64,000 bases of DNA from SAR324 cluster bacterium (GCA_014382365.1 JACNJW010000035.1:1165-65164); one strand, 5' to 3'. Numbered from the stretch's first letter, positions 1,110-48,262 are shown. The notes: generated by a model not told the origin, from the sequence alone. Made by a program: numbers and translations.

Positions 1110-1239
1110 AGTTTCCTTGATTTTGCCTATGATATTGGTGTATTATGATAAGCACGTTCTCGCCAGTCGAGGGATGCGTCAATCTTGATTTGTGAGAAGC
1201 ACAAACTGCTTAATAATTAACTCTCAACCATTGTGGCAT

Positions 1240-1497
1240 ATGTTGTGGGAAGGACTCAAGTTGATGGGTATAGGCATGGCAACTGTCATGCTTTTTCTGT
1301 TGTTGATGATTGCCTGCATTGGGTGGGTGAAACACCTGACCCGCAATTACACCCTGCTCCAGCAGCAAGCACTCAAGTCACTGCGAAAATCCAGTACAAA
1401 CTCCACTCAACCTCTGCCTATTTCTGCTGTACCAGTAGAAGTTTTTGCGGCAGCAATTTCAAAATTTGAATCCGATAATAGCATCACGAAAACTTAA
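1240..1497 (+). CDS. oadG: Oxaloacetate decarboxylase gamma subunit (OadG-like small membrane protein)
   Basis: 85 aa from an internal ATG of the track ORF. Single N-terminal TM with an OadG-like pattern (LWEGLKLMGIGMATVMLFLLLMI). Immediately upstream of oadA. Confidence 0.45.
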   Translation: MLWEGLKLMGIGMATVMLFLLLMIACIGWVKHLTRNYTLLQQQALKSLRKSSTNSTQPLPISAVPVEVFAAAISKFESDNSITKT

Positions 1498-1543
1498 AAT
1501 CCACAGCATCAGCTGACAACCGTTACTTAGAAAGAAAAATATC

Positions 1544-3337
1544 ATGGCCAAGAAACGCATTGAATTTATGGACACATCCTTCCGGGATGGGTTTCAATCC
1601 GTCTTTGGTGCACGAGTTGCTACTAAAGATTTTCTGCCTCCACTACAGGCAGCAATGGAGGCTGGAACAACTTATTTTGAGGCCGGAGGCGGTGCACGTT
1701 TTCAGAGTTTGTTTTTTTATTGTAACGAGTCTGCCTTTGACATGATGGACACCTTCCGCAAAACGGTTGGTGCTGAAGCAAATTTGCAAACACTTGCACG
1801 CGGTATCAATGTAGTTGCTCTCAGTCAACAACCGCGGGACATGATTGATTTGCATGCAAAAATGTTCAAAAAACACGGTATTACCACCATCCGGAACTTT
1901 GATGCATTGAATGATTTACGAAATCTCAAATATTCCGGTGAACGTATCACAGCTCATGGTCTGCATCACCAGATTGTGATTGCCATGATGGATTTGCCTC
2001 CAGGTTGTGAAGGTGCACATGACGTTGAATATTACCTGAAAACTCTTCGTAATATTCTGGATTCAGATGTACCTTTTAACTCGATTTGTTTCAAAGACGC
2101 CAGTGGAACAGCCAACCCCCGTAAAGTTTTCGAAACTATCAAAGGTGCCCGGAAAATGGTTCCGGAAGGTACAATTCTACACCTGCATACTCACGACACA
2201 GCAGGTGCTGCTGTCAGTCAGTACATGGGTGCAATTGAAGGCGGAATTGACAGGATTGATTTAGCAATGAGTCCGGTCAGTGGAGGAACAGGACAGCCTG
2301 ATATCCTTACCATGTGGCATGCACTCAAAGGTACGGATTATACACTGGATATTGATCCGGATAAAATCATCAGAGCAGAAGAAGTTTTTGCTGACAGTTT
2401 TGAGGATTACTTTTTTCCTCCCGAATCCAGGATGGTCTCGCCCTTGATTCCTTTTTCGCCAATGCCAGGAGGTGCGTTGACTGCCAATACGATGATGATG
2501 CGTGATACCGGAACATTGCACCTTTTTCCTGAAGTCATCAAAGAAATGTCGGAAGTTGTACGACTTGGAGGCTTCGGTGCCTCGGTCACCCCTGTTTCTC
2601 AGTTCTATTTTCAGCAAGCCTATCTCAACGTCACACAAGGCAAGTGGAAAAAAATCAATCCATCTTATGGTAATATGGTGCTCGGTTATTTCGGCCGGAC
2701 TCCGGTGGAGGCTGATCCTGAAATTGTCAAGCTGGCTTCAGAACAATTAGAAAAACCGGTTTTCAAAGAAGATCCACTTGATATTCTGGAACCTGGAATT
2801 CCGCAAGCGACCGAGGTGCTCAAGAAACATAACCTGCCTGAAACCGAAGAGAACCTGTTCATCGCCTCAAGCTGTGAAGCAAAAGGCATTGATTATCTGC
2901 TTGGTAAAGGAAAACTTTCGATCCGGAAAAAATCGAATGAAGAAAAAAAAGAAGCTCCTCCTCAATCAAAATCTACGCCGGCTTCTTCAATTGGACCAAA
3001 GGATTACACTATTACAGTCGATGGACGAAGCTATCAAGTTCAGGTCAGTGCCGGTGGTGCACATGCACCTGTGGTATCAAGTAACTCTACTGAACCAGTT
3101 CCCGTTGCTCAAACAGCAACCGGAAATGATATCCCCGCTCCGACACCCGGAAATATTGTGAGCGTCGCTGTTGCTGTTGGCGACAGCATTTCCAAGGACC
3201 AGACGTTGTTGGTGATGGAAGCGATGAAAATGGAATCAGAAGTCAAATCTCCACAAGCCGGAACGGTTCTGGCTGTTTTTGTTAAGATTGGGGATACTGT
3301 TCAAACCGGAGATGCTCTGTTCTCGCTGGGTGAATAA
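1544..3337 (+). CDS. oadA: Oxaloacetate decarboxylase alpha subunit (carboxyltransferase plus C-terminal biotinyl domain)
   Basis: 597 aa. N-terminal carboxyltransferase TIM-barrel motifs (FMDTSFRDGFQS). C-terminal biotin attachment motif EAMKME. Confidence 0.8.
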   Translation: MAKKRIEFMDTSFRDGFQSVFGARVATKDFLPPLQAAMEAGTTYFEAGGGARFQSLFFYCNESAFDMMDTFRKTVGAEANLQTLARGINVVALSQQPRDMIDLHAKMFKKHGITTIRNFDALNDLRNLKYSGERITAHGLHHQIVIAMMDLPPGCEGAHDVEYYLKTLRNILDSDVPFNSICFKDASGTANPRKVFETIKGARKMVPEGTILHLHTHDTAGAAVSQYMGAIEGGIDRIDLAMSPVSGGTGQPDILTMWHALKGTDYTLDIDPDKIIRAEEVFADSFEDYFFPPESRMVSPLIPFSPMPGGALTANTMMMRDTGTLHLFPEVIKEMSEVVRLGGFGASVTPVSQFYFQQAYLNVTQGKWKKINPSYGNMVLGYFGRTPVEADPEIVKLASEQLEKPVFKEDPLDILEPGIPQATEVLKKHNLPETEENLFIASSCEAKGIDYLLGKGKLSIRKKSNEEKKEAPPQSKSTPASSIGPKDYTITVDGRSYQVQVSAGGAHAPVVSSNSTEPVPVAQTATGNDIPAPTPGNIVSVAVAVGDSISKDQTLLVMEAMKMESEVKSPQAGTVLAVFVKIGDTVQTGDALFSLGE

Positions 3338-3341
3338 ATAA

Positions 3342-4856
3342 ATGTCCAAGCTTGCTCAAATCATAAGTATCATTTTATTTTTTGGCTTTTCATCAATTGG
3401 ATTTTCCCAATCCACTGATGAACAGATAAAAATCGTGATGCCTACAGATGCACGAGTGATTCGAGTTGATGCAAAAATAGATCAATGGGTTTATGCTGGG
3501 GATATTCTGGCAGTGCTCAAAGACTCGAAAGGTGCAAAATTCAAGTTCCGTGCTGGTATTTCGGGACAGCTGGTTTTTTGGAGACTGCAGAACCTCAGGC
3601 ATTATGGTGCCGGTGAGACAGTTGGCATCCTGCAGGTTGCACCGGTAATTACTGAAAAAATCACGAATGGTGATGCGGTAGTTGCCTTACCTGCTTTTGA
3701 TAAAATGCTGCTTAACCTTTTCAATTCCACCGGACTCGCAGGACTGATTCGCGGACAGGGTTTGGATTGGACCGAAGGACTGGGGCGCTTAATTATGATA
3801 GGCGTAGGATTAGGCTTGCTCTACCTGGGAATCCGTAGACAATTCGAACCGCTGCTGCTGGTTCCGATTGGTTTTGGTGCAGTACTCTCAAATATTCCAC
3901 TGGCTGGACTTTCGGAACCTGGAGGACTTTTATATTATGTTTATGAAGTTGGAATCACCACAGGAATATTCCCCTTGATAATTTTCATGGGTGTTGGTGC
4001 AATGACCGACTTCGGACCAATGCTGGCCAATCCCAAAACTGCACTGCTGGGTGGTGCAGCACAATTTGGCATTTTCGGTACCTTACTGGGTGCATTAGCC
4101 TTGAACGGAATTCCCGGCATTGATTTTTCACTCAGAGATGCCGCATCTATCGGCATCATTGGGGGTGCAGACGGGCCAACTGCAATTTTTCTTGCCAGCC
4201 AGCTTTCTCCCCGTTTGCTGGGCTCCATTGCGATTGCGGCCTATTCATATATGGCAATGGTTCCAATTATTCAGCCCCCAATCATGCGCTTACTGACTTC
4301 AAAACAGGAGCGTGAAATTGAGATGACTCAGTTGCGGTACGTTTCAACGCGGGAAAAAATTATTTTTCCCCTAGTCGCGCTCAGTCTGTGTGCATTACTG
4401 TTGCCTTCTGCAGCACCGCTGATAGGTATGTTTATGTTTGGAAATTTAGCCAAGGAATGCGGAGTGATACATCGTCTTTCGGATACCATTCAGAAGTCAC
4501 TGATAAATACTGTAACAATATTTCTTGGGCTGAGTATCGGTAGCAAACTGGCTGCAGGTGAATTTCTCAACCTGGAAACTGTTGGAATTCTTGTTTTGGG
4601 AATCATCGCTTTTTCAGTGGGTACGGCAACCGGAGTGCTGATGGCAAAACTCATGAACAAGCTTTCTGCCTCTCCGATCAATCCTCTGATTGGAGCTGCG
4701 GGCGTTTCTGCGGTTCCAATGGCAGCACGGGTTGTAAATCAAGTTGGACTTGAGGCCAACTCGCAAAACCACCTGCTGATGCATGCCATGGGTCCCAATG
4801 TATCAGGTGTAATCGGCTCTGCAGTCGCGGCAGGTGTATTGTTGGCCATGCTGTAA
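3342..4856 (+). CDS. oadB: Na+-translocating decarboxylase beta subunit (OadB) with ~121-aa N-terminal extension
   Basis: Canonical OadB begins at the Met at nt 3705 ([14 protein letters not shown]...[12 protein letters not shown]...[14 protein letters not shown]). The same frame is open back to an ATG at 3342, 4 nt after the oadA stop. The extension has a hydrophobic N-terminus and a biotinyl/lipoyl-like beta-barrel pattern. Confidence 0.8.
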
Positions 4857-4897: not shown

Positions 4898-6118
4898 TTA
4901 AATACCCTGACGTTCTACGAATTCAGGATAAGCATGCAGACCGAATTCACTCACATCCATTCCGTTATATTCGTCTTCTTCCGAAACTCTGATGCCTACA
5001 GAATATTTAAGTACTGACCAGACAAGCAGGCTGCTGAAAAAAGTAAACACCCCAATTACAACAATACCTTTGATTTGCGAATAAAGCACAACTTCTGGAT
5101 TGAATACTCCTACCGCCAATGTCCCCCAAATTCCATTCACCAGGTGTACAGATAAAGCACCAACAGGATCATCAATCTTGAGCCTATCAAACACTGGTAC
5201 TGCAAACACAACCAGTAAGCCTCCGATTCCTCCAATCAAAACTGCCAGTGACATACTTGGATAATCCGGTCCAGCCGTAATGGCTACCAGACCAGAAAGT
5301 GCTCCATTGAGAATCATTGTCAAATCTACTTTCTTATAGAGAAGCTGAGTCAAAACCATTGCTGCTAAAGCTCCGGCACAGGCCGCAATATTTGTGTTGG
5401 CAATTACTGCAGAAATAGCATCAATATCTGACTTTGAGCCTAAGGCCAACTGAGAGCCGCCGTTGAAACCAAACCAGCCAAACCATAAAATAAATGTTCC
5501 TAAAGTTGCCAGCGGTAAGTTAGATCCGGGAATTGGATGCATGTTTCCTTTCGAGTCATACTTACCTTTTCTGGCACCCAGCAACAAGACTCCTGCCAGT
5601 GCGGCCCAGCCGCCTACAGAATGTACAATAGTTGAACCTGCAAAATCACTGAATCCGTCAATTATTCCACCCAAACTTGTACCACCCCATGTCCAGTGTC
5701 CCTGGATCGGATAAATAACTGCAGTCAAGAACAATGTGAATCCCATGAAGGGCCAGAACTTTATCCGCTCTGCAACTGTTCCGGACACGATCGAAGCTGC
5801 AGTTGCTACAAAAACAACCTGAAAAAAGAAGTCTGACTGCAAACTGTGTCCATCTGCAGAGGTTCCGTTAAGCAAAAATCCGTCGCCAAAAAAGTCGTTT
5901 CCACTTCCATACATCAAATTGTAGCCGACAAAATAATAAGCCACGCAGGCCAGCGCATAAAGGCAAATATTTTTTGTGAGAATTGCTGTTGTATTTTTGG
6001 TACGCACTAACCCTGTTTCCAGCATCGCAAAACCTGCGGCCATCCACATAACTAAGCAACCACTAATTAATAACCAAAAACTATCAAGCACATATTTCAT
6101 TTCGACTGAAAATTCCAT
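4898..6118 (-). CDS. amtB: Ammonium transporter (Amt family)
   Basis: 406-aa polytopic membrane protein with Amt-family motifs. Directly downstream of glnK on the same strand. Confidence 0.85.
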   Translation of the reverse strand: MEFSVEMKYVLDSFWLLISGCLVMWMAAGFAMLETGLVRTKNTTAILTKNICLYALACVAYYFVGYNLMYGSGNDFFGDGFLLNGTSADGHSLQSDFFFQVVFVATAASIVSGTVAERIKFWPFMGFTLFLTAVIYPIQGHWTWGGTSLGGIIDGFSDFAGSTIVHSVGGWAALAGVLLLGARKGKYDSKGNMHPIPGSNLPLATLGTFILWFGWFGFNGGSQLALGSKSDIDAISAVIANTNIAACAGALAAMVLTQLLYKKVDLTMILNGALSGLVAITAGPDYPSMSLAVLIGGIGGLLVVFAVPVFDRLKIDDPVGALSVHLVNGIWGTLAVGVFNPEVVLYSQIKGIVVIGVFTFFSSLLVWSVLKYSVGIRVSEEDEYNGMDVSEFGLHAYPEFVERQGI

Positions 6119-6160: not shown

Positions 6161-7048
<888 letters not shown>

Positions 7049-8218
7049 TTGTCTGAGCAAAACCCTGTTTTTATTCCAGGACCGACCAATATTCCTGAGG
7101 AAATACGCAAGGCCTGTGACATAGGCACAATGGATCACCGTTCCGCAAAGTTTTCGGAAATTATCAATCCTGCACTTGCCGGATTGAAAAAAATTTTAAA
7201 AACGGAAACCGCCGAAGTTGTTGTTTTTCCATCATCCGGAACCGGAGCTTGGGAAGCCGCCATCAGCAACACCCTTTCCGCAGGAGATAAAGTTCTGGCC
7301 GCAGAACAAGGAATGTTTTCGCAAAAGTGGATTGAGATGTGTCGGCGGCACAATCTCGAAATGCAGGTGTTTGAAGTGGAATGGGGAGAATCATGTCCGG
7401 TTTCGGCTTATGCGGAAGCACTTAAAGCGGATACCGGACACCAAATAAAAGCCGTTCTCGTAACACACAACGAAACCGCCACCGGAGTTTTGAGCGATGT
7501 TTCTGCTGTGCGTAAAGCACTCGATGCGGCAAATCATCCGGCCTTGCTTTTGGTGGACGGTGTGAGTTCGATTGCTTCTATAGATTTCAAGCTGGACGAA
7601 TGGGGAGTTGACATTGCGGTTGCCGGATCGCAAAAAGGTTTTATGTTACCTGCCGGATTGTCGATTGTCGGCATCAGTCAAAAAGCAATTTCTGCTATGG
7701 AAACAGCAACTTTGCCTCGTTTTTATTTTGATTTGCGTGAAATGATGAAGCACCTTTCTTCCGGAGGTTATCCTTACACACCGATTGTTGGGATGCTCAA
7801 CGGCTTGAAAAAATCAACCGAAATGTTGTTGGCGGAAGGTCTGGAAAATGTTTTTGCGCGCCATCACCGTTTGGCGGAAGGTGTGCGCAAAGCCGTGAAA
7901 GCTTGGGGCTTGGAAATGTGTGCGCTGCGCGAAGAAATTTTTTCTGATACGGTAACGGCAATTTTGGTTCCGGATGGTTTTGACGGCACGGAATTAGTCA
8001 ATCACGCCGCCAATAAATACGGAGTTTCCTTCGGCGGAGGTTTGGGGAGGGTTGCCGGAAAAGTTTTTCGTATAGGTCATTTGGGCAGTCTTACTGATGT
8101 GATGGCTTTGTCCGGAATTGCTGCAGCGGAAATGGCAATGGTCGATTTAGGTTTTCCGATTAAGCTCGGTTCAGGAGTTTCTGCGGCGCAAGAATATTAC
8201 CGTAATTCTGCAAAATAA
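7049..8218 (+). CDS. bhcA: Class V aminotransferase (serine/aspartate-glyoxylate aminotransferase family); BhcA-like
   Basis: 389 aa. N-terminal PGPTNIPEEI and PLP-lysine motif SQKGFMLPAG typical of the AGXT family. TTG start with SD. First gene of an A-B-C-D block. Confidence 0.6.
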   Translation: MSEQNPVFIPGPTNIPEEIRKACDIGTMDHRSAKFSEIINPALAGLKKILKTETAEVVVFPSSGTGAWEAAISNTLSAGDKVLAAEQGMFSQKWIEMCRRHNLEMQVFEVEWGESCPVSAYAEALKADTGHQIKAVLVTHNETATGVLSDVSAVRKALDAANHPALLLVDGVSSIASIDFKLDEWGVDIAVAGSQKGFMLPAGLSIVGISQKAISAMETATLPRFYFDLREMMKHLSSGGYPYTPIVGMLNGLKKSTEMLLAEGLENVFARHHRLAEGVRKAVKAWGLEMCALREEIFSDTVTAILVPDGFDGTELVNHAANKYGVSFGGGLGRVAGKVFRIGHLGSLTDVMALSGIAAAEMAMVDLGFPIKLGSGVSAAQEYYRNSAK

Positions 8219-8231
8219 AAGGAGATTTAAA

Positions 8232-9188
8232 ATGTACATTCCAACATTCGATGATGTGAAAACAGCACAAAAACGCATTGCGCCTTATATTCATAAAACT
8301 CCGGTTTTGACCAGTACTTTTATGAATGAATTAAGTGGGGCAGAATTGTTTTTCAAATGCGAAAATTTCCAAAAAGCCGGAGTTTTCAAAGTTCGGGGTG
8401 CAACGAATGCAGTTTTTGGTTTGAGTGAGGAATTGGCAGTCAAAGGTGTGGCCACTCATTCTTCCGGGAATCATGCTTTGTCGTTGGCTTATGCCGCAGG
8501 TCGCAGGGGAATTCCGGTTACGGTCGTCATGCCCCACACCGCTCCGGAAGCAAAAAAATCGGCGGTGCGCGGGTACGGCGGGAGCATTGTTGAGTGCGAA
8601 CCCAGCACTTCATCGCGTGAAGAAACTTTTGCCAAAGTTGTCGCTGAGTCCGGTGCGGATTTTGTGCATCCGTACAATGACCCGCGTGTAATTTCTGGGC
8701 AAGCAACTTGTTCGCTGGAATTGTTGGAACAAGCCGAAAATTTGGATGCAGTGATTGCGCCGATTGGTGGTGGCGGAATGGTTTCCGGAACTTGTTTGGC
8801 ATTGTCAAATGTTGCTCCGGAAACCAAAATTTATGCGGCAGAACCGAAAAATGCCGATGATGCTTACCGCTCCTTCAAAGCCGGAAAAATCATTGCCGAT
8901 GATGCTCCGGTAACAGTAGCCGACGGCCTGAAAGTGCCGCTCAAAGATTTGACATGGCATTTTGTTTCAAACCATGTTGAAGATATTCTGCTGGCCACTG
9001 AGCAGGAAATCATTGATGCCATGAAGTTGATTTGGCAAAGGATGAAAATCGTCATGGAACCGTCAAGTGCGGTGCCGCTTGCGACCATCCTGAAAAACAA
9101 AAACACCTTCGCCGGAAAGCGGGTTGGTGTGATTATTACCGGAGGCAATGTTGATTTGGACAAATTGCCCTGGAACAACTCAAATTAG
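8232..9188 (+). CDS. bhcB: PLP fold-type II serine/threonine dehydratase family; beta-hydroxyaspartate dehydratase (BhcB)-like
   Basis: 318 aa. PLP lysine motif FKVRGA and glycine-rich loop GGGGMVSG. Confidence 0.6.
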   Translation: MYIPTFDDVKTAQKRIAPYIHKTPVLTSTFMNELSGAELFFKCENFQKAGVFKVRGATNAVFGLSEELAVKGVATHSSGNHALSLAYAAGRRGIPVTVVMPHTAPEAKKSAVRGYGGSIVECEPSTSSREETFAKVVAESGADFVHPYNDPRVISGQATCSLELLEQAENLDAVIAPIGGGGMVSGTCLALSNVAPETKIYAAEPKNADDAYRSFKAGKIIADDAPVTVADGLKVPLKDLTWHFVSNHVEDILLATEQEIIDAMKLIWQRMKIVMEPSSAVPLATILKNKNTFAGKRVGVIITGGNVDLDKLPWNNSN

Positions 9189-9197
9189 GAGAGCTAA

Positions 9198-10370
9198 ATG
9201 AATACAATATCTAGCACCGGACTTTCCGGTTACGAAAATTTAGAAGTCGGTTATGATGTTCCGGCAATGCCCGGAATGAATGAGGCGGATATTCAAACAC
9301 CATGTCTGATGATTGACCTCGACGCGCTGGAGCGCAACATTAAAACCATGGCCGGATTTGCCAAAGAGATGGGAGTACGCCATCGCATACACGGCAAAAT
9401 GCACAAGTCGGTTGACATCGCGAAACTGCAAAGAGACATGGGCGATTCTTGCGGAGTTTGCTGTCAAAAAGTCTCAGAAGCGGAAGTTTTTGCGCGAGGC
9501 GGAATCACTGATGTTTTGGTTTCAAACCAAGTACGCGATGCTGTGAAAATCGACCGTTTAGCACGTATTCCAAAACTGGGCGCACGAACCATTGTTTGCG
9601 TTGATGATCTTGAAAATGTCACTGATCTTTCTGCTGCCGCCGTCAAACACGGGACAACACTCGAATGTTTGGTCGAAATTGATTGCGGTGCAGGGCGTTG
9701 TGGAGTTGCGGCAGGTCAGCCGGTTGTCGAGATTGCCAAAGCGATTGAAGCCGCACCGAACTTAAAGTTCTCCGGAATTCAGGCCTATCAGGGTGCAATG
9801 CAACACATGAAAAGCTACAACGACCGCAAAGCCAAAATCGAGATCGCTGTTGAAATGGTTTCGCGTTCGGTGGAAATGCTGCAAGCCGAAGGACTGGAAT
9901 GCGACATTGTCGGCGGTGCCGGAACCGGAAGTTATTATTTTGAAGGTACATCGGGAGTCTATAACGAATTGCAATGCGGTTCCTACGCCTTCATGGATGC
10001 CGATTATCAAACCATTGAAGATGAAAACGGAAAACCGATTTCCGAGTTTGAAAACTCAATGTTCATTTTAACTTCGGTGATGAGCCACTCCAAAGCCGAC
10101 AAAGCCATTTGCGATGCGGGCTTGAAAGCACAATCTGTGGACAGCGGTTTGCCTTATGTTTTTGGGCGCAAAGATGTGGAGTATATCAAATGTTCGGACG
10201 AACACGGAGTGATTTCCGATCCAAACGGTGCGCTGAAAATCAACGAAAAGTTAAAATTAGTTCCGGGCCATTGCGACCCGACTGCTAATGTTCACGATTG
10301 GTATGTCGGTGTACGCGGCGGAAAAGTTGAAGCTCTGTGGCCGGTTTCGGCTCGCGGCAAGGCGTATTAA
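9198..10370 (+). CDS. bhcC: Alanine-racemase-fold (DSD1/D-threo-3-hydroxyaspartate dehydratase/aldolase) family; BhcC-like beta-hydroxyaspartate aldolase
   Basis: 390 aa. Fold-type III PLP lysine region HGKMHKS. Family typical of D-serine deaminase and D-3-hydroxyaspartate aldolase. Confidence 0.55.
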   Translation: MNTISSTGLSGYENLEVGYDVPAMPGMNEADIQTPCLMIDLDALERNIKTMAGFAKEMGVRHRIHGKMHKSVDIAKLQRDMGDSCGVCCQKVSEAEVFARGGITDVLVSNQVRDAVKIDRLARIPKLGARTIVCVDDLENVTDLSAAAVKHGTTLECLVEIDCGAGRCGVAAGQPVVEIAKAIEAAPNLKFSGIQAYQGAMQHMKSYNDRKAKIEIAVEMVSRSVEMLQAEGLECDIVGGAGTGSYYFEGTSGVYNELQCGSYAFMDADYQTIEDENGKPISEFENSMFILTSVMSHSKADKAICDAGLKAQSVDSGLPYVFGRKDVEYIKCSDEHGVISDPNGALKINEKLKLVPGHCDPTANVHDWYVGVRGGKVEALWPVSARGKAY

Positions 10371-10389
10371 ATATTAACAAAAAATAATC

Positions 10390-11355
10390 ATGATTATCGT
10401 TCCAGAAAAAGCCATTCCAAATTTAATCGACCGTACAACTTCCTTCAAAGCAGTCGAAGCTGTTTTTGCCGCAATGTCAAACGGCGATGCCTATAATTTT
10501 CCGGTCATCCGTGAAGACATTGGTTACGTCGATGCGCTTTACGGTTTCAAATCTGGCTTTGATAAAGCTGGTTTAACACTTGGTTTGAAGTCCGGAGGGT
10601 ACTGGCCAGGTAATGCAGAAAAAGGTCTCACCAATCACCAATCCAGCATATTCCTTTTTGATGCTGATACTGGCCAAGTGAAAGCGTTGGTTGGCGGGAA
10701 TTATCTGACGGCCATACGTACGGCGGCTTCTTCAGCTATTTCCATCAAACACCTGGCTCGTGAAGACTCCAAAGTTTTGGGCATGATCGGTGCGGGGCAT
10801 CAATCGGCATTTCAGTTACGGGCGGCAGTCGAGCAACGCAATTTTGAACGCATTGTCGGCTGGAACCTCCATCCGGAAAGGCTGTCTCGTTTGGAAGAAG
10901 TTTCTGCAGAAATCGGTTTGCCGTTTGAGGCTGTAAGCTTGGAGGAATTAGGAAAAGCGTCTGATGTTATTATTTCCATTACATCCAGTTTTGCACCAAT
11001 CTTAAAAGCAACTCAAGTCAAAGCCGGCACCCACCTCGCTTGTATGGGAACCGACACCAAAGGCAAACAGGAAGTCGAAGCTGAACTGGTCACTAATGCT
11101 ACTGTTTTCACCGATGAAATTGCACAAGCAATCTCCATAGGAGAATGCCAGCACGCTTTTACCAACGGCAGTTTGAAGGCAGAGGATATTTCGGAAATCG
11201 GCCCCGTCATTTCCGGAAAACATTCCGGCAGAACAACAACAAACGAAATCACTCTTTTTGACGGAACCGGAGTCGGCCTTCAAGATTTGGCTGTAGCAAC
11301 TGTTGCTGTCGAGTTGGCCTTAGAATCAGGAGTTGCTATTGAAGTCGAAAACTAA
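10390..11355 (+). CDS. bhcD: Ornithine cyclodeaminase/mu-crystallin family; BhcD-like iminosuccinate reductase
   Basis: 321 aa. OCD/mu-crystallin Rossmann motif GMIGAGHQSAFQL. Confidence 0.55.
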   Translation: MIIVPEKAIPNLIDRTTSFKAVEAVFAAMSNGDAYNFPVIREDIGYVDALYGFKSGFDKAGLTLGLKSGGYWPGNAEKGLTNHQSSIFLFDADTGQVKALVGGNYLTAIRTAASSAISIKHLAREDSKVLGMIGAGHQSAFQLRAAVEQRNFERIVGWNLHPERLSRLEEVSAEIGLPFEAVSLEELGKASDVIISITSSFAPILKATQVKAGTHLACMGTDTKGKQEVEAELVTNATVFTDEIAQAISIGECQHAFTNGSLKAEDISEIGPVISGKHSGRTTTNEITLFDGTGVGLQDLAVATVAVELALESGVAIEVEN

Positions 11356-11437
11356 TAATCTGTATTATTTTATTGATCCTTTTATTCATTTCATTTAATC
11401 TTAAGCAATTGAAAATGTACAATTAATTAGGAGGCTT

Positions 11438-13030
11438 ATGAACAACATAAATATTTCCGGAAAGATGCATCCGGGATTTGAGATAATTCTGACAGAGGAA
11501 GCACAGGAATTTTTAATCAAACTGCATCAAAGATTCAACAATACCCGCAAAGCTCTATTAGGGCGCCGCTCAGAAATTCATCAAAAAATTCTTGCAGGTG
11601 AAAATCCTATATTTTTACCTGAAACCGCATCTGTCCGTAAAGGAAACTGGCAAGTAGCACCCATTCCTGATGACCTGCAGGACCGCCGCTGTGAAATTAC
11701 AGGACCCGCAGAAGCAAAGATGATGATCAACGCACTCAATTCCGGTGCAAAAATTTTCATGGTCGATTTAGAAGATTCGATTACACCCAACTGGTTCAAT
11801 CAAATCCAGGGACAGGCAAATTTATCGGCTGCCTACGAACGCACGCTTGAATTTAACAGTCCGGAAGGCAAGGAATATCGACTAAATTCAGGAGAGCTGG
11901 CAACATTAATTGTCCGTCCACGTGGCTGGCATCTGGAAGAAAAGCATATCCTGATTGATGGTGAGGTTGCTTCAGGTTCACTGGTGGATGCCGGACTTTA
12001 TCTGTTCCACAATATCAAACGAACCCTGAACAAAGGTACCGGTCCGTATTTTTATCTGCCGAAACTGGAAAACCATTTGGAAGCCCGTTTGTGGGATGAG
12101 GTTTTTGCCTTTGCAGAACAGGAGTTGGGTGTAACACATGGCACCATCAAGGTGACTGTGCTGCTGGAAACTATTTTGGCTTCTTTTGAAATTGATGAAA
12201 TTCTGTATGAGTTGCGTGAACACATGGCTGGAATCAATGCCGGACGTTGGGATTATATGTTTAGTGCAATCAAAAAATTTCGGCATGTACCGGAATTCCT
12301 CTGGCCGGACCGTGCACAAGTCACGATGACTGCACCAATGATGAGGGCCTATACTGAATTGCTGGTACAGACTTGTCATAAACGTGGTGCACATGCGATT
12401 GGAGGAATGGCTGCTTTTATTCCCAGCCGCCGTGACGCGGAAGTAAACCGCGTTGCGCTGGCCAAAGTTAAAGAGGATAAGGAACGCGAAGCACAAGATG
12501 GTTTTGACGGCTCATGGGTCGCACACCCTGACCTGGTTCCGGTTTGTACTGATGTTTTCAGCAAGGCTTTTGAAGACGGCAGAGTAAATCAAAAGCACCG
12601 CTTGCGTGAGGATGTTCAAGTAACACCGGAGATGCTGCTGGATTTTAAAATACCGGGAGGAAAAATAACTGAATCCGGTTTGCGCAACAATATCAGTGTG
12701 GGAATCCAATACATTTCTGCCTGGTTAAAAGGTACAGGTGCAGTAGCTATTTTCAATTTGATGGAAGACGCGGCAACAGCTGAAATAGCCAGATCACAGG
12801 TTTGGCAATGGATTCAACATCCTGAAGGAAAATTGGATGACGGTCGTAATATCACGGTTGAGATGGTGCAAAAGCTGATTCCTGAGGAACTCGCAAAAAT
12901 CCGGGAAACTTATGATGATGCATATGATGAAGAAAAGATGAATCAGGCCCGAGACTTGTTTGTCTCATTGGTTATCGAAGAGGATTTTGAGGAGTTCCTT
13001 ACTGTTAGGGCCTATGATCAGTTGGACTGA
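11438..13030 (+). CDS. aceB: Malate synthase A
   Basis: 530 aa with malate synthase A N-terminal and catalytic-region motifs. Good SD (AGGAGG). Confidence 0.85.
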   Translation: MNNINISGKMHPGFEIILTEEAQEFLIKLHQRFNNTRKALLGRRSEIHQKILAGENPIFLPETASVRKGNWQVAPIPDDLQDRRCEITGPAEAKMMINALNSGAKIFMVDLEDSITPNWFNQIQGQANLSAAYERTLEFNSPEGKEYRLNSGELATLIVRPRGWHLEEKHILIDGEVASGSLVDAGLYLFHNIKRTLNKGTGPYFYLPKLENHLEARLWDEVFAFAEQELGVTHGTIKVTVLLETILASFEIDEILYELREHMAGINAGRWDYMFSAIKKFRHVPEFLWPDRAQVTMTAPMMRAYTELLVQTCHKRGAHAIGGMAAFIPSRRDAEVNRVALAKVKEDKEREAQDGFDGSWVAHPDLVPVCTDVFSKAFEDGRVNQKHRLREDVQVTPEMLLDFKIPGGKITESGLRNNISVGIQYISAWLKGTGAVAIFNLMEDAATAEIARSQVWQWIQHPEGKLDDGRNITVEMVQKLIPEELAKIRETYDDAYDEEKMNQARDLFVSLVIEEDFEEFLTVRAYDQLD

Positions 13031-19152: not shown

Positions 19153-20151
19153 ATGGCAGAAGAAACAACAGGCGGTGAGCCGCAAGCAGGACCGGGACCG
19201 GATGCAGGTCCTCCTCCAGCTGGAGAAGTAAATATAGACGGAAACACACTTTCTTCAGATGGTGAAGGCAACATGAGCTTTGAAGGAGCTGATGGGGCAC
19301 ATGGTGAAATGAGTGCAGACGGATCTGCATCATTTCAAGGACCGGAAGGTTCAGGAATATCTGGAGAAATGAATGCTGATGGTTCAGGATCATGGACTGG
19401 TTCGGACGGTACTACTACTTCTTGGGAAGCCGGTGAAGCTCCTCCTAATGACTTGCCCGGAATGGAAGCACTTCCTGATATGGGAGAAATCGCCAACTCC
19501 CCTGAAGCAGTAGAAGCTTTTGGCGGCCCTCCTCCGGGAATGATGGATGGCGAACCTGGGATAGGTCCAATGCATGGAGACATGGAAGGAGTGACAGGTG
19601 ACGTATCTGGCTGCTCGGGTGACATGACTGGTGTAACTGGAGACGTGTCTGATTGTTCTGGCGATATGTCAGGATGCCAGGGTGATATGACTGGCTGCGA
19701 AGGCGACATGTCTGGAGTCACAGGTGATGTTTCAGATTGTTCTGGAGACATGACTGGTTGTCAGGGTGACGTATCTGGCTGCTCTGGCGACATGACTGGT
19801 TGCGAAGGTGACATGACTGGAGTCACTGGTGACATGGGGCCATACGCTGGTGACATGACTGACGTGACTGGTCCTCCACCAGCTGAAATGATGGGTGCTG
19901 AGGGCGACCAAGGAATGGGTGCCATGGATCAAGCATTTGCTGACCCAGGAATGGATCCTGGAATGGCTCCTCCAGGGGATGATCCAATGGGAGCTGCACT
20001 TGACGATTCTGCTGCGGCAAGTGATGCCGGTGGTGCAGCTGGAGGCCAAGGTCCAGGACCAGACCCAATGGCTGATATGCCTGACCCAGGGATGGATCCT
20101 GGAATGGATAAAGAGCCTGAAGACGACCAGGATGGTGGTGCTATAGGTTAA
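19153..20151 (+). CDS. Acidic Gly/Asp/Met/Cys/Pro-rich repetitive protein with 14 tandem heptads GD(M/V)xG(C/V)x; no recognisable signal peptide
   Basis: 332-aa ORF with its own promoter-like hexamers and a strong SD, followed by a hairpin. No family assigned. Confidence 0.55.
   Translation: MAEETTGGEPQAGPGPDAGPPPAGEVNIDGNTLSSDGEGNMSFEGADGAHGEMSADGSASFQGPEGSGISGEMNADGSGSWTGSDGTTTSWEAGEAPPNDLPGMEALPDMGEIANSPEAVEAFGGPPPGMMDGEPGIGPMHGDMEGVTGDVSGCSGDMTGVTGDVSDCSGDMSGCQGDMTGCEGDMSGVTGDVSDCSGDMTGCQGDVSGCSGDMTGCEGDMTGVTGDMGPYAGDMTDVTGPPPAEMMGAEGDQGMGAMDQAFADPGMDPGMAPPGDDPMGAALDDSAAASDAGGAAGGQGPGPDPMADMPDPGMDPGMDKEPEDDQDGGAIG
19576..19872 (+). repeat. 14 tandem copies of a 21-nt (7-codon) repeat inside the ORF, imperfect at the DNA level
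   Basis: Protein residues 142-240: GDMEGVT GDVSGCS GDMTGVT GDVSDCS GDMSGCQ GDMTGCE GDMSGVT GDVSDCS GDMTGCQ GDVSGCS GDMTGCE GDMTGVT GDMGPYA GDMTDVT. Copies differ mostly by synonymous substitutions. Confidence 0.8.
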
Positions 20152-20168
20152 TACCAGTTGAGATCATG

Positions 20169-20202
20169 TAAGTGGTGCACTAAATTTTTTTTGCACCACT
20201 TA
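20169..20202. terminator. Perfect 11-bp inverted repeat TAAGTGGTGCA-N12-TGCACCACTTA (hairpin; candidate intrinsic terminator/attenuator or regulator site)
   Basis: Read directly. Lies 18 nt after the stop of the repeat-protein gene and 120 nt before the ABC transporter gene. Loop and 3' flank are T-rich. Confidence 0.4.
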
Positions 20203-20321
20203 TTTGACTATTTTATTATCCCAAACAAACCCACAACATGTGTGCCATTTAGAGAGATACACACCTCTTCGTTTTTCTTCAAAAATACTAATCCTAAAAC
20301 CTTCTTAAAAATAAATCCACT

Positions 20322-22547
20322 ATGTTTGGCAAGAAAAAAAATGAAATTCTTGTTGATCACAGGCTGGCTTATTGCGTCTCTTTGACCACCAGAAGGCATG
20401 GAGTATATATAAATCGTGAGGAGGTAGAAAAAAAATTCCCTGAAGACGATCCTCCAAAAACCACTAGAGAATTAAATGCTTTTCTCGCAGAGAGAAAACT
20501 TGAAGCAAATCCAATAAATATTTCAACAGATGATTTCAAGGATAAAAATTTCGTATTTCCCTGTGCAGTTCCATTTACGAATGGTCAGTCAATCATAGCA
20601 TTAAGTGTACTGAAGAAAGACGATGATTTTTTTGTTAAGTTTCTTGACCCGTTAGACCCTCAAGCCAGGCAACAGGAAGTTGGAATAAATGAATTTGAGA
20701 AACTTTGGAAAAATATTGTTTTTTCAGTAAATGCACTAAGAGGTACTGAAAGTAAAGAAAGATCTTTTGATTTAGAATGGTTCCTTCCTGAATTATGGAA
20801 ATGCAGATATATGCTTCTTTGTGCTTTCATAATTTCTATTCTACTGAATATATTATCATTTACTCCTATAATTTTCATACAGATAGCCTTAGATAAAGTT
20901 GTAGGATATAAAGCTATTTCTACTTTATATGTACTGACAGCAGGAGTTGTTGTTGCACTAATATTTAATGCAATAATGGGTTTTATTCGCGATTACATTT
21001 TCAATTACATAGGAGATATACTTGAGTCCAGAATTGCAACTGATGTCTTTGACAAATTGCTGGGACTACCCTTAATAGAAGTTCAAGGAGAAAACATAAC
21101 TAAATTTGGGGGCTCAATGCAATCAATTACAGCCTTAAGGAATACTCTGGTCATGAGAGTGTTTAAGGTAGTTTTCGATTTGACTGCTGTACTCGTTTTT
21201 GTCCCAGTTATGTTTGCATATAATTTCCTGATGGGAATAATAGTGCTTGGATTTTCTCTGTTGATGGGTTTTAACAAAATCATTTTTAACAATATTGCAG
21301 GTAAATCTCCAGAAATACTAAACGAAGTGGAAAGTAGTAAAAACAGTCTGGTTCGCGAAACCCTGCATGGAATGACAATGCTCAAAGAGTTTGAAGAGGA
21401 AGAATCGGAGAGGAAAAATTGGCGAAAATCTGCTGCTGCTTCAATTATGTTAAGATCAAAGAAAAATCAGGTAAACAGCGCATCCACCGAGATTAACAGC
21501 TTTCTTCAACAAGCAATGACAATTGTAATTATCTTTACTGGAGTACAATTAGTTTTTGCTGAGCAGCTTTCTGCTGGTTCAATCATAGCGATTAATATGG
21601 TCGCTGGAAAATTAACCTCTCCTATTATTGCTGCAATCACATTATTTGGTGAAAGAACACAAATATTAAACCTTATCTCTCAAATAGGTGAGATTTGGAA
21701 TAAGGGAAAAGAACAATTGGGAGCAGGTGTTCACTCAGCCATAAGTGGAAAATATACTTTTGATAAAATTTCAATGAGTTTTGGAGATGTAAAAGCATTA
21801 AACAAAATATCTTTTGAGCTAACACCAAAATCCAAAGTTGGAGTAGTGGGTCCTACTGGAGCAGGCAAAAGCACATTGTTAAATATTCTTGCAGGAACAT
21901 TTCATCCTACAGAAGGTAGAATGGAAATAGATGGAGTAGGAATAAATCAATATGATTTATCATATTACCGTTCGCAGGTTATGCTGTTGGATAAGAAACC
22001 CATATTTTTTAAAGGTACAATAGAAGACAATATGTCCCGGGTGACACACAACATTGGTAAAAATGAACTTGCACACATTTTTGCTTTAACAGGATTTGAT
22101 GAACACCTACAAAAACTGCCTGAAGGTATTCATACAACAATTGATGAAACTGCCAGCCAATTGGCTGGTGGAGCTGCAAGCCTGCTTGCACTTTCAAGGG
22201 CTTTGCTTGCAAATCCAAAAGTCTTGCTTTTGGATGAGTTTGCAGATTCACTTGATATTGATACCAGAATTAAATTACAAGATAACTTTTCTACTATCGC
22301 CAGTGAAAGAACCGTGGTCGATGCTCAAAATGTAATAAGTCATGAATTAGATTCAATATCGAATTATGATAAAATTATTGTCTTAGATGGAGGTAAAGTA
22401 GTTGGACAAGGCAAGCATGAGCAGCTGCTTGTTAGTTGTGAAATTTATAGGCAAATGCTGGAAAAAGAAAAAAAATTGAGTGCAATTGGTGAATCGAAAA
22501 ATACAGAAACAAAAGAAAATCCTCCTGTGGATCAAGAAAATGCTTAG
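20322..22547 (+). CDS. Type I secretion/bacteriocin-type ABC exporter with N-terminal C39-peptidase-like domain, 6-TM exporter domain and C-terminal ATPase
   Basis: 741 aa. N-terminal ~150 aa resembles the C39 Cys-box (LAYCVSLTTRRHGVYINREEV). Then a type I exporter TMD. Walker A GPTGAGKST, Walker B LLLDEFADSLD, H-loop SHE. The signature motif reads LAGGAASL rather than LSGGQ. Confidence 0.75.
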   Translation: MFGKKKNEILVDHRLAYCVSLTTRRHGVYINREEVEKKFPEDDPPKTTRELNAFLAERKLEANPINISTDDFKDKNFVFPCAVPFTNGQSIIALSVLKKDDDFFVKFLDPLDPQARQQEVGINEFEKLWKNIVFSVNALRGTESKERSFDLEWFLPELWKCRYMLLCAFIISILLNILSFTPIIFIQIALDKVVGYKAISTLYVLTAGVVVALIFNAIMGFIRDYIFNYIGDILESRIATDVFDKLLGLPLIEVQGENITKFGGSMQSITALRNTLVMRVFKVVFDLTAVLVFVPVMFAYNFLMGIIVLGFSLLMGFNKIIFNNIAGKSPEILNEVESSKNSLVRETLHGMTMLKEFEEEESERKNWRKSAAASIMLRSKKNQVNSASTEINSFLQQAMTIVIIFTGVQLVFAEQLSAGSIIAINMVAGKLTSPIIAAITLFGERTQILNLISQIGEIWNKGKEQLGAGVHSAISGKYTFDKISMSFGDVKALNKISFELTPKSKVGVVGPTGAGKSTLLNILAGTFHPTEGRMEIDGVGINQYDLSYYRSQVMLLDKKPIFFKGTIEDNMSRVTHNIGKNELAHIFALTGFDEHLQKLPEGIHTTIDETASQLAGGAASLLALSRALLANPKVLLLDEFADSLDIDTRIKLQDNFSTIASERTVVDAQNVISHELDSISNYDKIIVLDGGKVVGQGKHEQLLVSCEIYRQMLEKEKKLSAIGESKNTETKENPPVDQENA

Positions 22548-22564
22548 GTTTGGGAAATAACTAA

Positions 22565-24313
22565 ATGACTGTAGCAACAAACACATTGAAACCCCAATTA
22601 TTAGTGCTGAAAAAAGGGGAGTATGTCTTTGAAGAAGGAGATGAAGCAATATTTGCTTATGTTCTCACTGAAGGCACAATTGAGATTGTTGCAATTATCA
22701 AAGGAGAAGAACTGGTTCTGGGAAAAGTAGAAAAAGGGACTATTTTTGGAGAAATGGCAATAATTGATGGCTTCCCGAGAAGCGCATCAGCACGTGCTGC
22801 CACTGCTTGTAAAGTACAAGAAGTTGGTCATAAAGAATTTCTTAATTATATTTCTAAAAAACCGGATGCTGCATTCCAAATAATGGGTAGACTATCTGGT
22901 TTTGTCAGGTCTGCTGATAAAAAAGCAAGTGAAAGTTTTTTGCTTCGTAAAACAGGTGTAAGTGAGGAAGAAGAAGATGGAAATAATGATAAGACCGACA
23001 TCGTTGCTGTACATAATTTTGAAGACACAGAGTCGATTTATGCCAGACCTCCTGCTAAACCTGTCATCGTCACTGCAGTCAGTTTGATCCTATTCATGTT
23101 GGTCATGACCCTCTGGGCATCTTTTTCTTTTGTTGATAAAACAGTTTCTGCACGTGGTAAATTCACAAATACTGCACCTAATATTGAAATTCAATCTACT
23201 GGTAGTTCAATTATTGAGGAATTAAATTTAGAACGAGGTCAATTCATTACAAAAGGAGAAACAGTTGCAAAACTTGATGGCACTGTTGTAAATGCAAATC
23301 TCAAAATTACCAGAGACAAAATATATGCAGTAAAAAATAAAATTTTGCGCCTTGAACTTCAAAAAATATCAATCTTACAAAAATCCTTAAATGAGGAATC
23401 TCTGGTTGAACTGGACAGTATTAACAAAGAAATATTAAACAGACACTTTGATGAATTTATGATTACAATGAAAACATTTTCTTCTGATCTTTTACGGTTA
23501 GAAACAGAAATTGTTTCAATGTCTGCAGATAAAGATTTAATTCGTGACCAGCTGGATATAAAAATTAAAATTGAAGATGGAAAAAAGAAGTTGTTTGAGA
23601 AAAATGTTGGTTCATTAATGGACACATTGAGTTCTACTGATCAAAGAATTTCTGTGAACCGTCAATTATTGTCAACAACTGGAAGTATCAAAAAACTCAA
23701 ATCAGAAAAAACAGCACTTGATGACCAGAGATCCTCTTATTTGACTGGAGAATTAGCAGGAATCGCAGTAGAACTTTCTTCTTTTAATGATCAATTACTT
23801 CAATTAAATGAGGAGTTAATTAAAAATGAATTAGAGAGAAGCAATTTATTTATTAAATCTCCAGTTGAAGGTGTTGTCTTAAATTTGCCTACAATTACGA
23901 TTGGATCTCTCATAAATAAAGGAGAGCCTATAGTAACATTAGTAAGAGCCGGATTACCCCTTGTTTTAGAGATTGATGTAGATCCAAAAGATGCCAGTGA
24001 TTTGTATAATGGGAATCCTGTTTCAGTCAAAATTGATGCCCTGCCATTTCAACAGTTTGGAGACCTGGCAGGAACCCTGGTCTATATTTCAGATGATACT
24101 GTAGAAGAATCCCTTCAGGGAGAATCCGGTGCTTTTTATCGTGGAAGAGTTCATGTTAAAGATTCTGAAATTATGGGATTGCCTGAAGAATTCGATTTAA
24201 CACCAGGTATGCTGGCAACTGCAGATTTAAAAGTAGGCAAAAGAAGATTGATTACATATTTTACAAATCCAATTCTAAAATCACTTTCAAGTGCTATGCG
24301 TGAACCGGATTAA
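22565..24313 (+). CDS. HlyD-family membrane fusion protein with N-terminal cyclic-nucleotide-binding (CAP-family) domain
   Basis: 582 aa. Residues ~15-120 carry cNMP-binding motifs (GEYVFEEGDEA...FGEMAIIDG..RSASARA). One TM (VIVTAVSLILFMLVMTLWASF). Long coiled-coil and a C-terminal HlyD beta-barrel region (...PGMLATADLKVGKRRL...). Confidence 0.7.
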   Translation: MTVATNTLKPQLLVLKKGEYVFEEGDEAIFAYVLTEGTIEIVAIIKGEELVLGKVEKGTIFGEMAIIDGFPRSASARAATACKVQEVGHKEFLNYISKKPDAAFQIMGRLSGFVRSADKKASESFLLRKTGVSEEEEDGNNDKTDIVAVHNFEDTESIYARPPAKPVIVTAVSLILFMLVMTLWASFSFVDKTVSARGKFTNTAPNIEIQSTGSSIIEELNLERGQFITKGETVAKLDGTVVNANLKITRDKIYAVKNKILRLELQKISILQKSLNEESLVELDSINKEILNRHFDEFMITMKTFSSDLLRLETEIVSMSADKDLIRDQLDIKIKIEDGKKKLFEKNVGSLMDTLSSTDQRISVNRQLLSTTGSIKKLKSEKTALDDQRSSYLTGELAGIAVELSSFNDQLLQLNEELIKNELERSNLFIKSPVEGVVLNLPTITIGSLINKGEPIVTLVRAGLPLVLEIDVDPKDASDLYNGNPVSVKIDALPFQQFGDLAGTLVYISDDTVEESLQGESGAFYRGRVHVKDSEIMGLPEEFDLTPGMLATADLKVGKRRLITYFTNPILKSLSSAMREPD

Positions 24314-44919: not shown

Positions 44920-45687
44920 ATGAAACCGGCAAACAGAAGAACTGAAATCGTGAAGATGGTTCGGCAGCGCAACCGCATTACTGTGGATGAACTGGCAGCT
45001 AAGCTTCATATTTCGCGGGAAACCGTAAGGCGGGATTTAACTATGCTGGCCAAAACGGGGGAAATTCAAAAATATCACGGTGGAGCTTCATTACCAACTA
45101 TGCTGGGAGAAGGTCCTTTTTTAAGCAGAATGGGCAAAAACACAGAAGCCAAAGTTCTGATTGCAGAGGAAGCAGTAAAACTAGTAATCCCGGGAGAAAC
45201 TCTTTTTATTGATACCGGTTCAACCACACTTTATTTTGCTGAAAAACTGGCAAAAATACCGGATTTAACAGTAGTTACAAATTCTGCAGAAATTGCCAGA
45301 ACGATCAGCATTGCTCCTCTACAGTCTAAAGTGTTTTTGCTGGGAGGAGAGTTCAGTGCAGATAATCGTCAAACTTTTGGAAGTCTGGCTATCTCACAAA
45401 TTCACTCCTTCCGTGCGCATCATGCCATTCTTGCCGTTGGTGCACTTGATTCACAAACCGGAGTGATGGATTTCAATATCAACGAAGCACAAGTCGCACA
45501 AGCCATGCTCACACAAGCTGAATCTTTAACTATTTTAGTGGATAGTTCAAAATTTGAAAAAATTGCTTCATTTGAAGTATGTGAGCTTGAGAGAATCACC
45601 AACCTGGTCTGTGAACAGCCTCCTCCAGATGAAATAAAAGAAGCCCTGTTGAAAGCAAAAGTAAACATTTGTTGTGCTGCCGTATAA
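44920..45687 (+). CDS. glpR: DeoR-family transcriptional regulator (GlpR-like)
   Basis: N-terminal HTH (ITVDELAAKLHISRETVRRDL) and DeoR C-terminal sugar-phosphate-binding domain. Confidence 0.75.
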   Translation: MKPANRRTEIVKMVRQRNRITVDELAAKLHISRETVRRDLTMLAKTGEIQKYHGGASLPTMLGEGPFLSRMGKNTEAKVLIAEEAVKLVIPGETLFIDTGSTTLYFAEKLAKIPDLTVVTNSAEIARTISIAPLQSKVFLLGGEFSADNRQTFGSLAISQIHSFRAHHAILAVGALDSQTGVMDFNINEAQVAQAMLTQAESLTILVDSSKFEKIASFEVCELERITNLVCEQPPPDEIKEALLKAKVNICCAAV

Positions 45688-45758
45688 TAACCTCCTCATA
45701 TAAATCCAGTTGTAAAATAATAGTTGACTGAACGGTTGTTTTATTCTACTATTCGGTC

Positions 45759-48225: not shown

Positions 48226-48262
48226 AGTTTGTCTTTTGCCTCCACTTATAAACGAATGTAAA

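Follow-up and report, generated by a model that had tools for sequence, protein, structure and literature searches.

Alpha- and Gammaproteobacteria are the groups from which the beta-hydroxyaspartate cycle (BHAC) has been described (PMC11323563). In Paracoccus denitrificans its net effect is the conversion of two glyoxylate to one oxaloacetate without loss of CO2: BhcA converts aspartate and glyoxylate to oxaloacetate and glycine, BhcC joins this glycine to a further glyoxylate, forming beta-hydroxyaspartate, which BhcB dehydrates to iminosuccinate, and BhcD reduces iminosuccinate with NADH to aspartate (PMC11323563 and work cited there). The genes are found as bhcR-bhcABCD (Pden_3917-3922 region), and BhcR is the activator of bhcABCD (PMC11323563). 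Here we describe a bhcABCD gene cluster, followed directly by the malate synthase gene aceB, in a 64,000-nucleotide stretch of a SAR324 cluster bacterium contig (GCA_014382365.1 JACNJW010000035.1:1165-65164), referred to below as the window.

The four enzyme families of the SAR324 cluster are those of the P. denitrificans cluster, with unchanged order and near-equal lengths, and the chemistry is presumed to be the same. The SAR324 cluster differs in its host, in having no divergent bhcR, in having aceB downstream, in facing glnK-amtB and in the TTG start codon of bhcA. A second point of reference is provided by the aceBAK-type operons of the glyoxylate shunt. The window AceB likewise passes the malate synthase A model TIGR01344 and uses glyoxylate, but its gene is the last of the bhc operon and has no adjacent isocitrate lyase gene or aceK. 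We consider it likely, from comparison of sequences, that the window harbors a genuine bhcABCD operon, captured without bhcR, that lies beside a native aceB and is an accessory trait in SAR324.

The host, an uncultured deep-ocean bacterium, lies outside the Alpha- and Gammaproteobacteria of the described cycle and is an unreported host clade for a known pathway. Proteins identical to those of the block and to the flanking Dxr have been deposited under "SAR324 cluster bacterium", on a 125-kb contig and in two records of metagenome-assembled genomes. SAR324 is classified as Deltaproteobacteria incertae sedis in the NCBI taxonomy and as a separate phylum in GTDB. The literature searched held no substantive joint mention of the hydroxyaspartate cycle and SAR324, although the supplementary taxonomy of the original 2019 description might list such sequences. 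A SAR324 pangenome study treats the glyoxylate shunt and RuBisCO, not the BHAC (PMC8364033). A BhcA search of species-representative genome contigs returned Alphaproteobacteria only, and no SAR324 representative; the sister SAR324 loci discussed below (numbered with the prefix L, as are all comparison loci) were reached through exact-protein look-ups.

Layout and enzyme identity of the bhcABCD-aceB block

All coordinates are positions in the window unless a sister locus is named. The block spans 7049-13030 on the + strand, and its genes and immediate neighbors are as follows (aa, amino acids; nt, nucleotides; PLP, pyridoxal phosphate).

4898-6118, - strand: amtB of the "marine subtype", divergent from bhcA
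6161-6499, - strand: glnK, divergent from bhcA
7049-8218, + strand: bhcA, L-aspartate:glyoxylate aminotransferase, 389 aa, TTG start, class V PLP enzyme (Pfam Aminotran_5)
8232-9188, + strand: bhcB, beta-hydroxyaspartate dehydratase, 318 aa, fold-type II PLP enzyme (Pfam PALP)
9198-10370, + strand: bhcC, 3-hydroxy-D-aspartate aldolase, 390-aa open reading frame (ORF), DSD1 family (Pfam Ala_racemase_N and D-ser_dehydrat)
10390-11355, + strand: bhcD, iminosuccinate reductase, 321 aa, ornithine cyclodeaminase/mu-crystallin fold (Pfam OCD_Mu_crystall)
11356-11437, + strand: bhcD-aceB spacer, 82 nt, AT-rich, with AGGAGG six nt 5' of the aceB ATG
11438-13030, + strand: aceB, malate synthase A, 530 aa (Pfam MS_N, MS_TIM-barrel and MS_C)

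ORF calling gave exactly the coordinates and lengths (389/318/390/321 aa, then malate synthase) reported in an earlier note on this DNA, and the Pfam assignments agree with the four enzyme families in the order that it stated. The AT-rich region of about 550 bp across which it placed glnK-amtB is the 549-bp glnK-bhcA spacer, with a GC content of 27% over 6500-6999. Two further observations of the earlier note, that malate synthase A lies directly downstream and that no IclR-type BhcR is encoded alongside, also stand: the 530-aa ORF passes TIGR01344, and none of the scanned window ORFs encodes such a regulator. Both features are unusual among bhc loci.

The five ORFs lie on one strand, with gaps of 13, 9, 19 and 82 nt from bhcA to aceB. 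All complete non-SAR324 loci that were examined share the contiguous order A-B-C-D. A well-spaced Shine-Dalgarno sequence, GGAG, lies seven nt upstream of the bhcA TTG, and the BhcA model NF045640 aligns from residue 1 of the protein (1-388 of 395). At 390 aa, the bhcC ORF is longer than its counterparts in P. denitrificans (387 aa) and in sister SAR324 lineages (384 aa); the real bhcC start may be a few codons 3' of 9198, in the region 9198-9215.

Gene identity was assigned with curated NCBIfam equivalog models, each of which carries its own cut-off. BhcA scores 706.9 bits against NF045640 (cut-off 650; next best model 184.6), BhcB 599.3 bits against NF045641 (cut-off 550), BhcC 714.5 bits against NF045642 (cut-off 690) and BhcD 572.6 bits against NF045643 (cut-off 500), and AceB scores 737 bits against TIGR01344, malate_syn_A (cut-off 594.5). 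Models for related enzymes fail. Two EutB models match the window dehydratase at 219.7 bits (cut-off 413) and 192.6 bits (cut-off 413.35), the EutC model matches the cyclodeaminase at 167.3 bits (cut-off 471.65), and the L-threo-3-hydroxyaspartate ammonia-lyase model NF005454 matches BhcB at 356.1 bits (cut-off 452).

Comparison with solved structures is consistent with these assignments. The best solved relative of BhcC is P. denitrificans BhcC (6QKB; 71% identity, E = 6.5e-184, 614.8 bits), with the D-threonine aldolase 7DIB lower at 352 bits, and that of BhcD is P. denitrificans BhcD (6RQA; 61% identity, E = 3.6e-127). No solved P. denitrificans counterpart of BhcA or BhcB occurs among the structure matches. 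The best structure for BhcA is Arabidopsis serine-glyoxylate aminotransferase 6PK1, with which the SQK PLP-lysine motif aligns, while the closest solved structures for BhcB are serine racemases, and the FKVRGA lysine motif is present. None of the four Bhc ORFs is truncated, and their PLP-lysine and Rossmann motifs are intact.

By these profile scores all four window proteins are orthologues of BhcA-D. The earlier note had based its bhcABCD reading on family and gene order and proposed a profile comparison, in which all four proteins exceed the Bhc equivalog cut-offs. It named a grouping with ectoine/hydroxyproline or D-serine catabolic paralogues as an outcome that would speak against it, and here the Bhc models pass and the paralogue models fall below their cut-offs. 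The reading is supported as far as sequence allows.

Regulatory context and origin of the bhc genes

Of the ORFs of 120 aa or more in the 64-kb window that were scanned with Pfam or NCBIfam models, none belongs to the IclR family. Outside SAR324, a divergent IclR-type gene lies within 600 bp of bhcA in 41 of the 45 bhc loci with enough upstream sequence, the loci without one being L032, L038, L055 and L065. Downstream, none of the 42 non-SAR324 loci whose retrieved flank is long enough contains an aceB homologue. The SAR324 loci all have aceB, and bhcR is missing from each of them.

The glnK-bhcA spacer contains a candidate promoter and, between this and bhcA, a presumed leader.

6812-6840, + strand: candidate sigma-70-type promoter, TTGACA at 6812-6817, 16-nt spacer, TAAAAC at 6834-6839
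6841-7048, + strand: presumed 5' leader, about 200 nt, from the candidate promoter to bhcA

The candidate promoter sits in the sole conserved island of the spacer. Across five aligned SAR324 spacers, conservation is confined to the blocks ATTGG..CCAC..TTGACAAAT and ATGTAA.ACTA, and the island is kept among SAR324 lineages diverged to a synonymous divergence (dS) above 1. The promoter scan itself chose an overlapping candidate, which is not conserved. The TTGACA/TAAAAC island is likely the promoter of the operon. A terminator scan found no + strand site between 11355 and 11438 and none internal to the operon. With gaps of 9-82 nt, no terminator hit on the + strand inside the operon and a conserved promoter island, a single transcript for all five genes is probable.

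Several other regulatory elements were considered and rejected. A riboswitch or leader RNA 5' of bhcA was discarded, since Rfam gave no match at E<=5 in 6450-7100 and the fold has a z-score of -0.63; no Rfam family, the glycine riboswitch included, reaches its gathering score anywhere in the window. A sigma-54/NtrC promoter in common with glnK was discarded, as none of the five SAR324 spacers contains a TGGCAC-N5-TTGC-like site with the invariant GG/GC. A small regulator ORF in the 549-bp spacer was discarded as well, the only ORFs there being of low complexity and 21-51 aa long.

Against alphaproteobacterial homologues the Bhc proteins show 79-86% identity. For BhcC, matches at 82-86% identity come from Stappia, Pseudohalocynthiibacter, Rhizobiales, Colwellia, Thalassotalea and Shewanella, and BhcA is 81% identical to that of "Rhodobacterales bacterium UBA3080" and about 70% identical to those of many Rhodobacterales. 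The nearest locus differs between genes (BhcA, 81%, L001; BhcB, 86%, L114; BhcC, 85%, L023; BhcD, 80%, L114); none is closest for all four, and therefore no donor can be named. These nearest loci (L001/L116, both UBA3080, L023 and L114) all carry bhcR, have a GC content of 52-62% compared with 42-47% in the window, and are followed by genes for GAPDH, a TRAP transporter or a ferric reductase, unlike the aceB of the window. A second SAR324 lineage with a canonical bhcR-bhcABCD, suggested at first by L108 and L114, was rejected; L114 has 61.5% GC and L108 51%, and the two contigs were taken to be unrelated.

Neighbor-joining trees, built per Bhc protein and from the concatenated alignment, place the three SAR324 lineages in one clade (100/100 bootstraps). 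In the concatenated tree SAR324 groups with UBA3080 (L001), again with 100/100 bootstraps, among sequences from bhcR-bearing loci. The GC content at third codon positions (GC3) of the four bhc genes is 0.42-0.47, compared with 0.37 +/- 0.04, and is the highest of the 24 window genes measured. Overall GC is 47% in the bhc block, 44% in the flanks and 52-62% in the nearest proteobacterial loci.

The relatives of AceB have a different distribution. Their identity falls gradually from 92% to about 64-68%, all of them SAR324-type or unnamed sequences, and the named non-SAR324 matches, at 61-63%, come from Chloroflexota, Thermaerobacter, Calditrichota and Kapabacteria, with no Proteobacteria. From this pattern aceB looks native to SAR324. 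In a further SAR324 locus (L105, AceB 80% identical; L105 7245-9593), the PhyH-oadGAB-amtB-glnK synteny is kept and glnK adjoins aceB across a 418-bp spacer. No bhc remnant is detectable between glnK and aceB in this locus, which could represent the pre-insertion state or a clean secondary loss. The amtB of L105 belongs to another type (34% identity).

Because of the high identity to, and nesting within, proteobacterial sequences, the raised GC3 and the bhc-free site in L105, we infer that the bhc block was horizontally acquired: bhcABCD would have entered a SAR324 ancestor from an alphaproteobacterium-like donor, without bhcR, and now lies directly upstream of a native aceB.

The gene trees conflict at one point. 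AmtB of L015 and AmtB of L022 share 95% identity, and both are 88% identical to the window protein (4898-6118), while BhcB and BhcC of L022 are 93-94% identical to those of the window and 91% identical to those of L015. This suggests recombination between SAR324 lineages at the locus.

Erosion of the locus in SAR324 and alternative explanations

Between SAR324 lineages at a dS of about 0.7-1.4, the ratio of nonsynonymous to synonymous divergence (dN/dS) is 0.04-0.12 for bhcA-D, similar to the values for aceB, amtB and glnK; for bhcA, the long-term value is 0.07-0.12. The four bhc genes have thus evolved under purifying selection and have been functional for most of their SAR324 history.

Several sister lineages have nonetheless lost parts of the operon. 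In L014 (~8360-8400), a near-complete in-frame deletion leaves a 12-codon stub of bhcA, and a contig from the same study breaks at the deletion junction. L016 (230-1399) and L021 (302-1468), from different assemblies, both carry a TAA at bhcA codon 48 (K48*), and L022 (3357-4526) carries a TAA at codon 315 (E315*). The genes bhcBCD and aceB are intact in all four. The 314-aa E315* product belongs to a cluster of 69 sequences from many assemblies, and the stop is for this reason not a sequencing error. A TTG follows it directly, and L022 BhcA may be a split, two-piece protein.

A more reduced form is found in L026 (2868-4453), L109 (5461-7001) and L110 (380-1914), in which bhcB is retained and bhcA, bhcC and bhcD are remnants of 70-220 nt. 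In L027 (36-1300), bhcB is followed directly by aceB, whose product is 93% identical to AceB of the intact L015 (dS 0.36), and this points to a loss of bhcC and bhcD independent of that in the other reduced loci. The two genes were thus deleted at least twice. These four reduced loci have the same site and flanks as the window and encode orthologous BhcB (87-93% aa identity) and AceB, but of bhcA, bhcC and bhcD they have at most remnants. Clusters at 90% identity have 940 members for the reduced form of AceB and 61 for the window's form, and 666 and 8 members, respectively, for BhcB. The commonest SAR324 form of the locus contains bhcB and aceB only. On these comparisons the window operon is one state of a polymorphic, eroding accessory locus.

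Between two reduced loci, the dN/dS of bhcB is 0.06 at a dS of 0.21, by which measure bhcB in the reduced form is retained for a function of its own. The aceB of this form also continues to evolve under purifying selection. A broader proposal is that the BHAC operon has repeatedly and independently been reduced to a strongly selected bhcB-aceB module, dominant in the ocean, in which BhcB has a stand-alone role outside the cycle; we hold this to be doubtful, though conceivable. Beta-hydroxyaspartate is a residue of many marine siderophores. If the proposal were true, BhcB may deaminate environmental beta-hydroxyaspartate to oxaloacetate or, alternatively, act as a serine/threonine dehydratase or racemase expressed with malate synthase, and the intact operon of the window would be the ancestral state of a pathway being repurposed.

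The pattern of loss bears on whether the cycle is closed at all. It is improbable, though worth weighing, that BhcC, BhcB and BhcD form a linear route from glycine and glyoxylate to aspartate or oxaloacetate, in which bhcA would be dispensable and glycine would come from elsewhere, for example from another aminotransferase or from one-carbon (C1) or glycine-betaine catabolism. Such a route would fit the finding that bhcA is the gene most often lost with bhcBCD and aceB intact (the L014 deletion, K48* in L016 and L021, and the widely sampled E315* of L022), and the glycine cleavage protein GcvP encoded in the window (51724-54669) makes glycine a metabolic hub here. However, bhcA is intact in the window and an identical protein is found on 10 contigs, its low long-term dN/dS marks the nonsense alleles as recent, and the loss of bhcC and bhcD in other lineages means that erosion is not specific to bhcA. 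The same losses, at least five independent inactivating events in the sister contigs, could also be taken as the sign of a silent or decaying relic, gained without its activator, poorly translated from a TTG start and unused. The missing bhcR, whose product activates bhcABCD in P. denitrificans (PMC11323563), and the far greater abundance of the reduced bhcB-aceB form (940 against 61 for AceB, 666 against 8 for BhcB) agree with this view. We regard a relic as quite improbable, given the four full-length ORFs with their intact motifs, dN/dS values of 0.04-0.12, the well-spaced Shine-Dalgarno sequence and a promoter island kept in lineages at dS above 1.

The remaining alternatives concern what the genes are and where they lie. 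Paralogues from the catabolism of ectoine/hydroxyectoine, hydroxyproline, D-serine or D-threonine would share the family make-up of bhcABCD, the same four superfamilies being used in those pathways, and weaker matches to EutB, EutC, threonine dehydratases and D-threonine aldolases do occur. Nevertheless, each paralogue model scores far below its own cut-off and each Bhc model is exceeded, and among solved structures BhcC and BhcD match best to the BHAC enzymes of P. denitrificans (614.8 against 352 bits for D-threonine aldolase in the case of BhcC). This alternative is effectively refuted, and we give it very little probability. That an alphaproteobacterial fragment was joined to a SAR324 contig during assembly or binning is hardly credible at all. 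The high identity to Alphaproteobacteria and a GC3 slightly above that of the flanks would be expected of a chimera, but four more independent contigs (L014, L015, L022 and L026) also have the glnK-bhc junction, and nine contigs with an intact bhcD have the bhcD-aceB-folK junction. The junction contigs come from ENA and JGI assemblies and are about 79% identical to the window at the nucleotide level. In addition, the SAR324 copies form a clade of their own, and the GC content of the block (47%) is near that of its flanks (44%) rather than the 52-62% of the nearest proteobacterial loci.

A genuine bhcABCD operon, captured without its regulator and carried as an accessory trait beside a native aceB, is the explanation that we prefer. 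By this account a SAR324 ancestor would have gained the bhc block without bhcR, in the position that it now holds between glnK and the host aceB, and the five genes would be read from the conserved sigma-70-type promoter about 200 nt 5' of bhcA. Glyoxylate would be drained by two routes, through the BHAC to oxaloacetate and through AceB, with acetyl-CoA, to malate. The trait would be accessory and in the course of being dismantled in sister populations, with bhcB and aceB as the commonest remaining form.

Several points weigh against this explanation. The start codon of bhcA is TTG. The gene has been inactivated independently in three sister lineages, and bhcC and bhcD have been lost in others; the complete cycle may be of marginal value in this clade. 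The regulator of the cluster is missing as well. As for the supply of glyoxylate, scans of the ORFs in the 64-kb window found neither a glcDEF glycolate oxidase nor an isocitrate lyase. The trees are neighbor-joining trees with midpoint rooting and a limited sample, and the nearest relative, UBA3080, is a metagenome-assembled genome known by its Rhodobacterales label only.

Neighboring genes and biological meaning

Other features of the window are given below.

1192-4856, + strand: Na+-translocating oxaloacetate decarboxylase genes, candidate oadG (1192-1497), oadA (1544-3337) and oadB (3342-4856)
19153-24313 (region): 332-aa ORF without a family match, with tandem 21/42/84-nt repeats at 19575-19872 that encode a GDMTGC-like unit of about seven residues
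20322-22547 and 22565-24313: type I secretion genes, ABC and HlyD, respectively, directly 3' of the 332-aa repeat ORF
44920-49681: glycerol utilization cluster, comprising a DeoR/GlpR regulator, a glycerol-3-phosphate oxidase-like flavoprotein, a second FAD oxidoreductase and glycerol kinase, all below equivalog cut-offs
51724-54669: gcvP, glycine cleavage P-protein, 981 aa, with a 475-nt gap upstream (51249 on)

The oadGAB genes lie beyond glnK-amtB, and OadA scores far below its equivalog cut-off (324.8 compared with 756.5). Oxaloacetate is the product of the BHAC, but a functional link of bhc to oadGAB, or to glnK-amtB, was rejected. Because the same neighbors flank aceB in the bhc-free L105, oadGAB and glnK-amtB are native context. 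A Dxr gene also flanks the bhc-aceB locus in the window. The 332-aa ORF may encode a secreted repeat protein, as it is directly upstream of the type I secretion ABC and HlyD genes.

Two groups of genes were considered as glcDEF candidates and rejected. The trio at 45759-49681 (485/344/481 aa) consists of a glycerol-3-phosphate oxidase-like protein, a flavoprotein and GlpK behind the DeoR/GlpR regulator, and the 981-aa ORF is GcvP. In SAR324, isocitrate lyase is reported only from ecotypes below the deep chlorophyll maximum, and deep ecotypes carry form I RuBisCO (PMC8364033). Given this RuBisCO, a role of the BHAC in the salvage of glyoxylate derived from phosphoglycolate is possible, although speculative.

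The findings leave knowledge of the enzymology unchanged; they are relevant to ecology and biochemically unsurprising. Few bacterial groups of the dark ocean are as abundant as SAR324. An intact, selected bhcABCD would extend carbon-neutral assimilation of glyoxylate and glycolate to this clade, where the BHAC would give a second glyoxylate sink besides malate synthase. The presence or absence of intact alleles could mark ecotypes in metagenomes, and the locus would provide a natural example of a pathway captured without its cognate regulator and then lost stepwise.

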